From a virus (lineage: Duplodnaviria > Heunggongvirae > Uroviricota > Caudoviricetes), in IMG/VR virus record IMGVR_UViG_2703718780_000024, positions 1-22,914 of that record: a stretch of 22,914 nucleotides of DNA. One strand, given 5' to 3'. Every line of letters starts with the position of its first letter. The stretch's first letter is position 1. The translations under genes were made by a program, and so were the position numbers. Shown one piece after another: positions 13,214 through 17,563 of the stretch. The notes under the pieces were generated by a model, which saw only the letters and a program-made list of their open reading frames with translations, had not been told where the DNA came from and made no database searches.

Positions 13214-13266
13214 AAACGATTTGCGGGAAAAGGATAGTTAAGTAGAATTGCTGCGGGTGCTTGAGG

Positions 13267-13302
13267 CTATCTGCCTTGGGCATGAACACCAAAGGCAGAT
13301 AG
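13267..13302. other. Long imperfect hairpin at the left boundary of the AT-rich island
   Basis: CTATCTGCC (13267-13275) pairs with GGCAGATAG (13294-13302), plus an inner TTGG/CCAA pair. No flanking T-run, so it is not a canonical intrinsic terminator. Confidence 0.4.
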
Positions 13303-13523
13303 AGAAAAACCCACCCGACTATAAATCAAAGTGTATTACCCCCATTTGTTGGACGATGAAATGGGTTTAGTTAACTATGTCGGTATCGACATGACTAAAA
13401 CAACCTTAAATTGCTCGATTAATAGACAAGTAGTTTTGAAAGATTAAATTTATGCGATCCGGTATTTTCAAGGGATAGCCTTTATGAGGTTATCTTATGG
13501 GGTTAAAACATCAAGAACAGTTG

Positions 13524-13532
13524 TGTTATAAT
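13524..13532 (+). promoter_or_regulatory. Candidate extended -10 promoter element for the methyltransferase gene
   Basis: TGTTATAAT (TGn + TATAAT) lies about 32 nt upstream of ATG 13565. Confidence 0.35.
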
Positions 13533-13564
13533 ACATAGAAACTAATAAGAGACGTTGCAACTAT

Positions 13565-14716
13565 ATGAATGTAATAGATTTGTTTTCTGGCGTTGGAGGT
13601 CTAAGTCTTGGTGCTGCACGTGCTGGATTTGATGTTAAAATGGCAGTTGAAATTGATCAACATGCTATTAATACTCACGCAATTAATTTTCCAAGAAGTT
13701 TGCACGTCCAAGAAGATGTTTCTTTACTAAATGCAGAAATAATTAAGGGTTTTTTTAAAAACGATATGCCCATAGATGGTATTATTGGCGGTCCTCCGTG
13801 CCAAGGATTTAGTTCAATAGGCAAGGGGAATCCTGATGATAGCAGGAATCAGCTTTACATGCATTTCTACCGTTTAGTATCAGAATTACAGCCATTATTC
13901 TTTTTGGCAGAAAATGTTCCAGGTATTATGCAAGAGAAATATTCTGGCATTAGAAATAAAGCATTTAATTTGGTTAGCGGTGATTATGATATTCTTGATC
14001 CCATCAAGGTAAAAGCATCTGATTATGGTGCTCCAACTATTCGAACTAGATATTTTTTTATCGGTGTAAAAAAATCATTGAAGCTTGATATTTCAGATGA
14101 AGTATTTATGCCTAAGATGATTGATCCGGTTACTGTAAAAGATGCTTTGTATGGATTACCAGATATTATCGATGCCAATTGGCAATCAGACTCTGAGAGT
14201 TGGCGAACAATTAAAAAAGATCGAAAAGGGGGATTTTATGAAAAATTATGGGGGCAGATCCCTCGGAATGTTGGTGATACAGAATCGATCGCTAAGTTAA
14301 AAAATAATATCATATCTGGATGTACCGGAACATTACATAGCAAAATCGTCCAAGAGCGTTATGCTTCCTTATCTTTTGGGGAAACTGATAAAATTTCAAG
14401 ATCTACAAGATTAGATCCAAATGGTTTTTGCCCGACTTTAAGGGCGGGAACCGCTAGAGATAAAGGAAGCTTTCAAGCCGTCAGGCCGATCCACCCTTAT
14501 CATCCAAGAGTGATTACACCAAGAGAAGCTGCTAGATTACAAGGCTTCCCTGATTGGTTTCGCTTTCATGTAACTAAATGGCATAGTTTCAGACAAATAG
14601 GAAATAGCGTGTCACCAATAGTTGCTGAATATATATTAAAGGGGCTGTACAATTTATTAAATAAAAGAGTACAGCCCGAATATTTAAACCATAATTCTTT
14701 GGAAGTTAGGGTATAA
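13565..14716 (+). CDS. DNA (cytosine-5)-methyltransferase, 383 aa
   Basis: Canonical C5-MTase motifs in order: motif I DLFSGVGG (aa 5-12), motif IV GGPPCQGFS (Cys79), motif VI ENV (aa 116-118), and C-terminal QIGNSVSP. The gene is AT-rich. Confidence 0.9.
   Translation: MNVIDLFSGVGGLSLGAARAGFDVKMAVEIDQHAINTHAINFPRSLHVQEDVSLLNAEIIKGFFKNDMPIDGIIGGPPCQGFSSIGKGNPDDSRNQLYMHFYRLVSELQPLFFLAENVPGIMQEKYSGIRNKAFNLVSGDYDILDPIKVKASDYGAPTIRTRYFFIGVKKSLKLDISDEVFMPKMIDPVTVKDALYGLPDIIDANWQSDSESWRTIKKDRKGGFYEKLWGQIPRNVGDTESIAKLKNNIISGCTGTLHSKIVQERYASLSFGETDKISRSTRLDPNGFCPTLRAGTARDKGSFQAVRPIHPYHPRVITPREAARLQGFPDWFRFHVTKWHSFRQIGNSVSPIVAEYILKGLYNLLNKRVQPEYLNHNSLEVRV
14642..14678 (-). terminator. Candidate intrinsic terminator for the minus-strand GHKL operon, embedded in the MTase 3' coding region
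   Basis: 9-bp stem GGGCTGTAC / GTACAGCCC (14642-14650 / 14670-14678) with a 19-nt loop. On the minus strand it is followed by a U-rich run (UUUAAUAUAU). Confidence 0.35.
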
Positions 14717-15673: not shown

Positions 15674-17064
15674 CACTTCACCTCTTCAATCACCGTATCA
15701 AAGCATTGCATCCCCACATCAGAAGCGCTAGCATCTTCATGTCCAAAGAAATATTTAGATAAAATTTTAACATCTTCTTTCTCTCTGGTGAAGATTATTC
15801 GTACAGTAGAGCTTTTTTTTACTGGGGTAGGCAGCTTAGGTGTATATCGCCACTCATTTTTGTTTCTATTAGGGTTGGACCAGTTATTTTTTTTATCTTC
15901 TGGAGTTGATTGTGGGGTAATTTCAAATAAAGATTGAGCTTCATGTGACTGAGCTGACTTAAGTAATTTTTTCCCTTCTTCAAGATGCTCACCTTTCCAC
16001 TGATTGGTGAATCGAATAAAATGCATCATCCCTTCAATCATTTTATTTCGTACATCATTGTACAATGTAGAACTAAGATCGACACCTCGTTTCGTTGTTG
16101 TTATTGGTAATTTTTCTGGGTTTTTACTGGTAAAGCGAACAACCCCAGAAATTGCTATAAATTGGGTATGAAACCTTGGTACATTAGCAAAGCCCCAACC
16201 TGTGAGATGTGTCTTATCACAATATAGAACAACGCGGTCATTGCAAATGACAGTCCATCCAGCATCATCAGAACTCCTTTTTTCTAAAACATCATCATTG
16301 TCATCTTCTAAATTTTTATAGAAGCCAACAACTAAATCGATATCAACATCGTCTATTTTAGCTTTATATATGTATGGTTCTATTTTAGAATGATCAGTTA
16401 TGATGTTAATCGGATTATGTTCAACAACAACTCCATTTAATTCTATTTTAAATCCTTTTTGAATAATAAATGACAATGAGTGTTTTATCTGTAAAAAGAG
16501 ATCAGTAAGATATGTGCTCTCATTAAATTTTTGTGCCACATTAGAATGGAGTTTTTTTATCTCTATAGTTGTGCCTGTTGGATTTTTGTTATCATAGTCA
16601 CTCTCGTGCATCGGTATTTTCCAACCATCACCATCGATCCAATCAGGTGTTATATCTACAGTGAATGCGCCATCGGGATTATTCGATTGTATTGAGCAAT
16701 CTCTACCCATTTTAAAAATGGCTCTTTTCATACCAATACCATAGACGCCAACGGTGCCTTCATTTTCTTCTTCTTTTTGATGGGGTCGTCCCATTTTAAA
16801 AGCATATTCTCGGAAGCTTTTAGGGATACCTCCGCAATTGTCTTCTATAATAAAGACATCTTTATTAATCGTAAGTTTCGCATAAAATCCTTCATATGGT
16901 TTTGAAGTTTTTTTTGTGTCTTTTATTGTACGTAAAGCCCCATCGACGCAGTTATCAAGCAGATCAAGTATGGCATCGTTTAAGTCGATATCTCGAGTTA
17001 GCATACTTACAAAAAATCTTTTACTAGGACTAAAGTCTGCTGTTGGAGTCGTGTTCTCAGTCAT
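15673..17064 (-). CDS. GHKL-superfamily ATPase (MORC/Hsp90-like Bergerat fold), 463 aa
   Basis: N-box DLLDNCVDGA (aa 33-43), G1 box IEDNCGGI (aa 73-80), G2 box GVYGIGMKRAIFKMG (aa 106-120). The roughly 330-aa C-terminal region is uncharacterised. Confidence 0.8.
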   Translation of the reverse strand: MTENTTPTADFSPSKRFFVSMLTRDIDLNDAILDLLDNCVDGALRTIKDTKKTSKPYEGFYAKLTINKDVFIIEDNCGGIPKSFREYAFKMGRPHQKEEENEGTVGVYGIGMKRAIFKMGRDCSIQSNNPDGAFTVDITPDWIDGDGWKIPMHESDYDNKNPTGTTIEIKKLHSNVAQKFNESTYLTDLFLQIKHSLSFIIQKGFKIELNGVVVEHNPINIITDHSKIEPYIYKAKIDDVDIDLVVGFYKNLEDDNDDVLEKRSSDDAGWTVICNDRVVLYCDKTHLTGWGFANVPRFHTQFIAISGVVRFTSKNPEKLPITTTKRGVDLSSTLYNDVRNKMIEGMMHFIRFTNQWKGEHLEEGKKLLKSAQSHEAQSLFEITPQSTPEDKKNNWSNPNRNKNEWRYTPKLPTPVKKSSTVRIIFTREKEDVKILSKYFFGHEDASASDVGMQCFDTVIEEVK

Positions 17065-17126
17065 AATTTACTCTCTATGTGTTTGGGAAAATAAATACCT
17101 TAAGTGCAAATTGTTGATTTTAAACG

Positions 17127-17140
17127 CTTCGCATGCGAAG
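17127..17140. promoter_or_regulatory. 14-bp perfect palindrome CTTCGCATGCGAAG upstream of the GHKL operon (candidate operator)
   Basis: Perfect dyad 63-76 bp upstream of the GHKL start codon, in the presumptive promoter region. Confidence 0.4.
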
Positions 17141-17238
17141 TCAACGATGTTAAGAAAGAAAGTGCATGTGATCTAACAGTATGTTTTTAAAAAAAGATTA
17201 GCTTTATGAGAATTCAGGACTGAATCCCGTGAGAGGAA

Positions 17239-17254
17239 AATAACATATGTTATT
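17239..17254. promoter_or_regulatory. 16-bp perfect palindrome AATAACATATGTTATT (candidate regulatory site)
   Basis: Perfect dyad inside the roughly 500-bp non-coding stretch between the island and the downstream prophage genes. Confidence 0.35.
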
Positions 17255-17563
17255 GTTGCATTGCTGTGTTGTTTGGGATTTGTTGCACCATTCTGGCGTT
17301 GGTATATCTAGTTCGTTGTTCATTTTGTTAATTGTACAACAGGCAGACAACAGAGAGCTTTTAGCCTAGTTAGCTTACGAAATTAAACAACTAAGATTAT
17401 CGGCGGGGAGTGGTCACCGCTACTCTTTGGCTAGGAGACTTCAACGCAACCGCACACAACCAGCTTCGGCGGGTTTTGTTTTTTCCTGGCATTCTGGTTT
17501 ACAATTTGCGTGCTAGCTTGAACAACTGGCATCTGCTGCACTGCGCCATCGAGAGATTGAGAA

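Follow-up and report, generated by a model that had tools for sequence, protein, structure and literature searches.

We analysed a 22,914-nucleotide stretch of viral DNA (positions 1 to 22,914 of IMG/VR record IMGVR_UViG_2703718780_000024, hereafter the window), which is 100% identical to Escherichia coli O157:H7 EDL933 and belongs to a Rac-like lambdoid prophage. It contains an AT-rich island whose three genes code for a DNA (cytosine-5) methyltransferase (C5-MTase), a MORC-type GHKL ATPase and a protein of the Methyltransf_35 family, the partner of the ATPase. On the basis of genomic context and one machine-learning prediction, this trio is a strong candidate for a methylation-based anti-phage system. 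We propose that the island is a mobile, methylation-linked immunity module of the MORC/paraMORC kind, similar to restriction-modification (R-M) systems; we hold this prediction in even balance, and have much less confidence in any single effector chemistry. The feature is real and is part of a widespread, conserved module. Its class has been predicted computationally: the link between MORC ATPases and Dcm-type methylases dates from 2008, the partner falls into an existing Pfam family, and its gene has been flagged by a published predictor. The partner and the apparent lack of a nuclease we did not find described. The three genes are arranged as follows.

13565..14716, plus strand: Dcm-family DNA (cytosine-5) methyltransferase, 383 residues (PF00145, PADLOC MTase_II, PDB 3G7U, motifs)
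14684..15673 (the 330-residue open reading frame runs to 15676), minus strand: Methyltransf_35 protein, 329 residues, partner of the GHKL protein (PF20553 match; class-I S-adenosylmethionine (SAM)-methyltransferase fold)
15673..17064, minus strand: MORC-type GHKL ATPase, 463 residues (PF13589, motifs, MORC S5 signature)

Conservation of the trio

The architecture of the module is not peculiar to the window. When each species was represented by a single genome, a scan for GHKL loci confirmed 276 of them, and the best 80 were analysed. They span Cyanobacteria, Nitrospirales, Latescibacterota, Planctomycetota, Chloroflexi, Acidobacteriota, Firmicutes, Proteobacteria, Verrucomicrobia and others, and include one archaeal locus from a Methanoregulaceae metagenome-assembled genome; the trio is found in more than a dozen phyla. 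The neighbourhoods of the GHKL gene are summarized below.

77/80 loci: Methyltransf_35 gene directly after or overlapping the GHKL gene
68/80 loci (68/79 evaluable; 86%): C5-MTase gene adjacent to the pair
55 loci: C5-MTase upstream and co-directional (C5-MTase, GHKL, partner)
7 loci: C5-MTase convergent, as in the window
6 loci: C5-MTase downstream and co-directional
12 loci: no methyltransferase within 7 kb (11 cyanobacterial, 1 cut contig)
32/80 loci: Vsr, the only other recurrent neighbour

Thus, the linkage between ATPase, partner and methyltransferase that the original prediction had anticipated in homologous contexts is borne out across many phyla, and C5-type enzymes are the only methyltransferase class that recurs beside the pair. 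Some of the solitary cyanobacterial pairs lie between housekeeping genes (NDH/Mrp subunits in Scytonema).

Leptospira, Yersinia, Pseudomonas and Elusimicrobiales carry the trio as well, as a search that started from distant Methyltransf_35 proteins showed. The Yersinia trio lies in a lambdoid prophage between Q and the holin gene, the Pseudomonas trio in an integrase island, and the Elusimicrobiales trio adjoins an MvaI/BcnI R-M system and a NERD protein. A single match, the Pseudomonas Pf phage PfAC20, came from 50,697 phage records; it carries a putative trio of a GHKL homologue, an adjacent 317-residue “hypothetical protein” and a C5-MTase. On the Microvirga terrae plasmid pR24_2 (locus L093, 6001-8415), the pair is located inside a DISARM operon, between an MmeI-like methylase and drmA, and may be either a nested system or a DISARM accessory. 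The gene order there is drmD, MmeI-like methylase, GHKL, O-methyltransferase, drmA, DUF1998. The contexts of the module are therefore mobile and rich in defence genes, comprising prophage cargo slots, integrase islands, R-M neighbours and a DISARM operon.

To compare the evolution of the three proteins, pairwise-identity matrices over 61 trios and the window were correlated. The GHKL protein and the partner co-evolve closely (Spearman 0.88), whereas the C5-MTase follows neither the GHKL protein (rho 0.27) nor the partner (rho 0.25). The GHKL-partner pair thus forms the core of the module, which a C5-MTase joins as a habitual but exchangeable third member. In this respect the original prediction, which treated the methyltransferase as a tightly integrated member, has to be revised: rho is about 0.25, the enzyme is absent beside 11 cyanobacterial pairs, and the pair occurs once in a DISARM context.

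The island as acquired prophage cargo

The original prediction had described an AT-rich, apparently horizontally acquired island between 13215 and 17560. The AT-rich region is real: in 500-bp intervals the GC fraction is 0.31-0.39 from 13501 to 17500, compared to about 0.42-0.60 in both flanks. The true ends, however, lie at ~13313 and ~17440, inside remnants of a hok/sok locus. The island proper (4.1 kb) has 35.0% GC against 48.1% in the remaining window, so that the composition is clearly not homogeneous, and every other 4.1-kb stretch of the window has a GC fraction of at least 0.445. The GC content at third codon positions (GC3) of the three island genes is 0.25-0.27, compared to 0.48-0.62 for the backbone genes. 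Because they share this GC3 and low overall GC, the three genes look co-acquired from a low-GC source; composition and common GC3 thus support horizontal acquisition of the island.

13236..13312, plus strand: left hok/sok remnant (5' part), left island border (megablast to hokD-bearing prophages; alignment to locus L087)
13313..17440, no strand assigned: AT-rich cargo island, hok coding region replaced (composition; homology to the hokD-locus flanks ends at ~13312 and restarts at ~17441)
17441..17539, plus strand: right hok/sok remnant (3' end of the hok mRNA), right island border (megablast to hokD loci, query positions 5142-5240; by-eye comparison)

The cargo seems to sit in place of a hok toxin gene, of whose type I toxin-antitoxin locus only the two ends are left. 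An Rfam match to sok at 13255-13379 is sub-threshold (50.2 bits, E=2.2e-10). Related prophages carry hokD, KilA-N with TehB, or other genes at the same position, which confirms that this is a variable cargo slot of lambdoid prophages, as had been suggested. The backbone has recE, kilR, sieB and ydaT upstream, and DUF1367/DUF1364/DUF1133, tRNAs and lysis genes downstream. Of 5426 complete E. coli genomes, 172 contain the whole island. A frameshifted DUF4014 pseudogene (RefSeq, EDL933; ~12155-12372, corresponding to 8056-8273 of locus L001) is located just upstream of the island.

Within the island the open reading frames lie where the original prediction had placed them, with a coupled minus-strand pair converging on the C5-MTase gene. 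The GHKL and partner genes overlap by one base (TGATG), and together with a GAAGAGG ribosome-binding site upstream this fits translational coupling of the two. The C5-MTase and partner genes converge with a 33-nt overlap, and such convergent overlapping 3' ends are kept in Enterobacter and Yersinia relatives. A consensus scan gave a promoter-like site for each strand.

13503..13532, plus strand: promoter-like site upstream of the C5-MTase gene, TTAAAA-18-TATAAT with an upstream TG (10/12 matches)
17117..17144, minus strand: promoter-like site of the GHKL-partner operon, TTGACT-16-TAAAAT, ~50 nt upstream of the GHKL start codon (10/12 matches)

Promoter-like sites in the region do not exceed the number expected by chance, and it is position alone that makes the site at the C5-MTase gene suggestive. 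In the AT-rich spacer upstream of the GHKL site there is a small Cys- and Asn/Gln-rich open reading frame at 17204-17350 on the minus strand (39-48 residues, depending on the start codon).

The three proteins

The C5-MTase matches PF00145 with E=2.6e-61 over residues 1-361 and the PADLOC profile MTase_II with E=2e-98; the DruM and DrmMII profiles are also matched. Its translation contains DLFSGVGG, GGPPCQGFS, AENV and GNSVSP, corresponding to motifs I, IV, VI and X of the PF00145 family. The protein is near-identical to PDB entry 3G7U (“Cytosine-specific methyltransferase”, 376 residues; E=1.3e-254), and therefore a crystal structure exists for it. No functional study of the 3G7U protein was found in the literature.

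The GHKL protein matches HATPase_c_3 (PF13589) with E=2.9e-9. In an alignment of 13 diverse homologues (~45% identity) the stretches D34LLDN38CVD41, D75NCGG and G106VYGIG are invariant. These are variants of the classical motifs, with Asp for Glu in ExxxNxxD and D75NCGG for DxGxG, and they place the protein in the GHKL superfamily; N38 and D75, which the original prediction had singled out for mutation, are among the invariant positions. The MORC-like nature that it had assigned to the ATPase also holds. The only PDB sequence match is MORC3, a weak one (E=0.02) covering the ATP-lid region alone, and the MORC signature GhXhhpXXRhl is present as GWTVICNDRVV at residues 269-279, a pattern that arose in 32/20,000 shuffles (0.16%). 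This signature, which in MORC proteins lies in the S5-fold domain behind the GHKL domain, defines the MORC family in the 2008 analysis (PMC2292703). All aligned GHKL homologues share G269, W270, T271, C274, N275, D276 and R277, and a TTTK325(R)G loop, likewise invariant, may be a basic finger that reaches the ATP site. The GHKL family as a whole is large and well conserved.

The 329-residue partner had been described as an unknown protein, a description that no longer applies. It matches Pfam family PF20553, Methyltransf_35 (“putative O-methyltransferase”), with E=2e-89 over residues 2-329 (profile 1-308/309), that is, over its full length, and its RefSeq name agrees with this. An AlphaFold2 (AF2) model built from a 63-sequence alignment (predicted local distance difference test score, pLDDT, 91.6) has the canonical topology of class-I SAM-methyltransferases, and the conserved SAM-motif residues of the predicted Rossmann fold are in place. 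Three residues are invariant over the 63 sequences, down to 24% identity: G44 in the GFGG loop after β-1, E67 at the end of β-2, and D110 at the end of β-4, followed by the nearly invariant Y111. SAM binding by the modelled protein therefore looks preserved. In fold comparisons the model comes closest to N2-guanine and other base methyltransferases (RsmD, Trm1, TrmN), in matches that span only the generic Rossmann core (~150-200/330 residues, 7-15% identity); a fold search in BFVD returned generic methyltransferases alone, and neither the single sequence nor the 63-sequence profile matched any PDB sequence. Judging by its D-Y motif IV and by these closest folds, the partner seems nearer to base amino-methyltransferases than to O-methyltransferases, and the “O-” in the family name appears nominal, an oxygen acceptor having no support here. 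Methyltransf_35 comprises 2,423 clusters at 50% identity, and its top 150 representatives are, with few exceptions, stand-alone proteins of 304-361 residues, among which no fusion to another domain was found; a few of 381-453 residues matched in two stretches. A 272-residue gene beside the GHKL and C5-MTase genes in Leptolyngbya (locus L060) was considered as a divergent partner and rejected (hhalign probability 0.3%, no Pfam match).

Defence context and prior literature

In a scan of 120 sampled nearest neighbours, several have strong PADLOC matches, among them type I specificity subunits, type IIG enzymes, DrmMI, MADS mad2/3/5, AbiLi, AriA, GajB-like helicases, DRT, HEC-01A and PDC-S03. The scan yields counts of families and not of individual proteins, so that the enrichment in defence genes is a qualitative one. 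According to the supplement of the DefensePredictor study (PMC13092281), the partner, WP_000016656.1, is a “predicted novel defense gene” with a mean log-odds of 9.75 compared to a strict cut-off of 4; the available text and tables of that study gave no sign that it had been cloned or tested. For the ATPase, Iyer et al. 2008 (PMC2292703) predicted that prokaryotic MORC/paraMORC proteins act in R-M systems with Dcm-type methylases and Vsr, and reported that “paraMORC1” co-occurs with MORC and methylase genes or with HNH genes. The term “uncharacterised” in the original prediction is apt for the pair, which has no function in PADLOC, NCBIfam or PHROGs: NCBIfam gave no meaningful match, and both proteins fall into PHROGs families of unknown function.

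Several observations weigh against an immunity module. Neither the GHKL protein nor the partner has a match in PADLOC-DB v2.0.0 at E≤0.1, and no paper on the module, nor any published experimental test of it, was found in the literature; a wider literature search yielded MORC papers on plants and animals alone. The DefensePredictor score draws on genomic context and is thus not independent of the synteny argument. No helicase, nuclease (Vsr apart) or other known effector is recurrent in the 80 neighbourhoods, and no Pfam model matches residues 135-463 of the GHKL protein. Eleven pairs, all from cyanobacteria (loci L008, L009, L015, L018, L022, L024, L030, L040, L049, L059 and L073), lack a C5-MTase within 7 kb, and in three cyanobacterial loci (L048, L060, L086) the GHKL gene is followed by a C5-MTase gene and there is no Methyltransf_35 gene. 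Given the GHKL protein, the partner shows no correlation with the target-recognition region of the C5-MTase (partial r 0.03, permutation p=0.3, in a test of low power). If the pair had to match a specific methylated sequence, one would expect the identity of the methyltransferase, its target-recognition region included, to follow that of the pair, which it does not.

Could the island hold two independent units, namely an orphan phage C5-MTase directed against host restriction and a separate GHKL-Methyltransf_35 system, defensive or not, that does not depend on 5-methylcytosine (5mC)? The weak co-evolution of the C5-MTase with the pair (rho 0.25-0.27), the solitary pairs in 11 cyanobacterial loci and the pair in the DISARM operon, where an adenine methyltransferase takes the place of the C5-type enzyme, agree with such a division, as does the window C5-MTase, which is encoded on the other strand and has a promoter-like site of its own. 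Orphan methyltransferases are also common in lambdoid nin regions. On the other hand, the 68/79 evaluable loci in which the C5-MTase is adjacent to the pair come from many phyla, and in most of them the genes form a co-directional operon with overlaps. The three window genes agree in GC3, Enterobacter and Yersinia relatives keep the convergent overlap of the 3' ends, and only C5-type methyltransferases recur. We therefore consider two independent units unlikely.

Comparison with known systems

Among the closest published descriptions is that of the MORC/paraMORC R-M neighbourhoods (PMC2292703), and the module possibly belongs to their paraMORC1 family. Like these, the module combines a GHKL protein of the S5-type signature with a linked Dcm-type methylase and Vsr, and it is sporadic and laterally mobile; a minority of the neighbourhoods described there has no helicase, which is likewise the case here. 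In contrast to this purely computational description, the module has a methyltransferase-fold partner, which the available text of that paper does not mention, and no detectable helicase or nuclease. A Serratia marcescens locus (L005/L006, 4572-11662) contains an HNH_2 gene, a 465-residue GHKL protein and a partner, followed by a convergent 608-residue second GHKL protein and a C5-MTase. It resembles the combination of MORC, DCM and paraMORC1 (with or without HNH) in that paper, and may be such a neighbourhood. The 608-residue protein carries GLYFISNDRVI, and similar second GHKL proteins occur in loci L027 and L035.

An experimentally validated GHKL protein of anti-phage defence is that of Shedu type I-D/paraMORC3 (VcSduA; PMC12137116). 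VcSduA also has an N-terminal GHKL ATPase, predicted to form a dimeric clamp that controls the effector. It is, however, one protein with a C-terminal DUF4263 PD-(D/E)xK nuclease, whereas the GHKL protein of the window has a separate methyltransferase-fold partner and a link to a C5-MTase. An assignment to Shedu was rejected because there is no DUF4263 match in Pfam and no Shedu match in PADLOC. The HEF_HK/Response_reg_2 pairs, computationally proposed relatives of paraMORC (Bellieny-Rabelo et al. 2021, PMC8011034), share with the module a HATPase_c_3 protein and a small partner directly downstream of a C5-MTase. HEF_HK is larger and has a second HATPase_c domain, its partner is receiver-like and not of the methyltransferase fold, and there is no sequence match to the proteins of the window. 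MZA was rejected as well, as the score for MzaB in NCBIfam is insignificant (12.4 bits compared to a cut-off of 850).

Similar to BREX and DISARM, the module would combine self-marking by a DNA methyltransferase with an ATPase. The restricting complex of BREX includes PglX, which has a methyltransferase fold, and to our knowledge cleavage of phage DNA has never been demonstrated for either system. The module differs from both in having three genes compared to five to eight, a 5mC marker, and a GHKL protein compared to AAA+ proteins or helicases, and there is no sequence relationship.

With type II R-M systems of the EcoRII/Dcm-Vsr type, the module shares a C5-MTase with all catalytic motifs, a frequent Vsr neighbour, mobility and compactness. 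The candidate restriction component, however, consists of an ATPase and a second SAM-methyltransferase-fold protein, with no recognisable endonuclease. We rejected a classical type II system because no nuclease was detected in the partner by fold, or in the GHKL protein by Pfam and PADLOC profiles, and no nuclease gene other than Vsr recurs in the 80 loci. The original prediction had seen no recognisable nuclease motif in the 329-residue protein, and the fold search indicates a methyltransferase; a classical R-M mechanism for the island is not established.

Possible modes of action

How might such a module restrict DNA? In the mechanism that we propose, the C5-MTase would be expressed as part of the prophage early operon, and probably also from a promoter of its own, and would set a 5mC “self” mark on host and prophage DNA. 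The presence of Vsr in 32/80 loci points indirectly to real 5mC in host DNA. The minus-strand pair would be expressed in the lysogen, antisense to phage early transcription, from the promoter-like site at 17117-17144. It may form an ATP-driven complex, in which a MORC-like dimeric clamp is loaded on DNA while the methyltransferase-fold subunit flips and inspects bases, and DNA without the mark would be restricted. Because no nuclease domain is detectable in the partner by fold or in the GHKL protein by profiles, restriction would most likely be non-nucleolytic. The pair could entrap or silence unmethylated DNA in an ATP-dependent manner, or it could place an aberrant methyl group on bases and so block replication, given that D110 (invariant) and Y111 (nearly so) resemble motif IV of amino-methyltransferases. 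Alternatively, it could recruit a host nuclease. The pair would read the methylation state from whichever methyltransferase is present, which would explain why the latter is exchangeable.

The specific proposal that a MORC clamp and a SAM-dependent base methyltransferase disable DNA lacking 5mC without any nuclease, by entrapment, silencing or a “wrong” methyl group, is tentative and, taken by itself, rather unlikely. If it is correct, the module would be a prokaryotic counterpart of eukaryotic MORC silencing coupled to cytosine methylation, and the partner would be the first methyltransferase to serve as a defence effector. As the only candidate effector is a methyltransferase-fold protein, the module could reveal DNA restriction without cutting.

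A different use of the same proteins would be abortive infection. Here the GHKL protein would sense foreign or unmethylated DNA, or the loss of SAM, and the partner would be a toxic rRNA or tRNA methyltransferase that halts translation, with the C5-MTase as a self-marker or a mere neighbour. The fold matches of the partner cover only the generic Rossmann core and do not identify a substrate. Since it is established that MORC-type GHKL proteins act on DNA (PMC2292703), and since the 86% adjacency of C5-MTases together with Vsr argues for a logic at the DNA level, we regard abortive infection as distinctly unlikely.

The two SAM enzymes and the apparent lack of a nuclease would also be compatible with a DNA modification pathway, in which the ATP-dependent pair complements 5mC with a further methyl mark, such as one on an exocyclic amine, or spreads or maintains methylation, so that a doubly marked genome shields the element from other restriction systems. 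An exchangeable C5-MTase is what one would expect if the pair recognises 5mC itself and not a sequence, and the D-Y motif IV resembles that of amino-methyltransferases. However, methyl transfer has no chemical need for ATP, the module is almost absent from sequenced phages (1/50,697 records, from a temperate Pf phage), it has defence genes and not modification pathways as neighbours, and pairs occur without a C5-MTase. A modification pathway is therefore very unlikely in our view.

Finally, GHKL/MORC proteins are relatives of MutL, and E. coli MutL is known to stimulate Vsr (discussed in PMC2292703). A MutL-like ATPase and its partner could accordingly aid very-short-patch T:G repair or remove lesions induced by the C5-MTase, cutting the cost of 5mC; Vsr in 32/80 loci and the tight linkage to C5-MTases only would agree with this. 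Vsr generally accompanies C5-MTases, though, and is thus not specific to the module, no repair function suggests itself for a conserved SAM-binding methyltransferase, and the pair also occurs without a C5-MTase, inside DISARM, and on mobile elements among defence genes. A repair accessory appears highly improbable.

If the immunity reading is correct, the module would for the first time open to experiment the MORC-type ATPases for which a role in bacterial R-M systems was predicted in 2008, and would bear on the ancestry of eukaryotic silencing by MORC proteins and DNA methylation. It is widespread, with ~2,400 clusters of the partner family at 50% identity, in many bacterial phyla and one archaeal metagenome-assembled genome. 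In E. coli O157:H7 and O111 it is carried by CP-933R-type prophage elements, where it could shape phage susceptibility, uptake of Shiga toxin (Stx) phages and the 5mC methylome. Being small (3.5 kb), native to E. coli and equipped with a C5-MTase of known crystal structure (3G7U), the module is directly testable.

Other features of the window

Outside the island, the RalR/RalA type I toxin-antitoxin pair of Rac-type prophages is located at 1553-1813 (minus strand) and 1557-1735 (plus strand), with RalA matching Rfam RF02694 at 225 bits. The antisense RNA DicF (6135-6186, minus strand), two prophage tRNA genes (19144-19216 and 19320-19393, plus strand; Ile and Arg in the EDL933 annotation) and the small RNA STnc100 (20166-20338, plus strand) all exceed their Rfam gathering scores.

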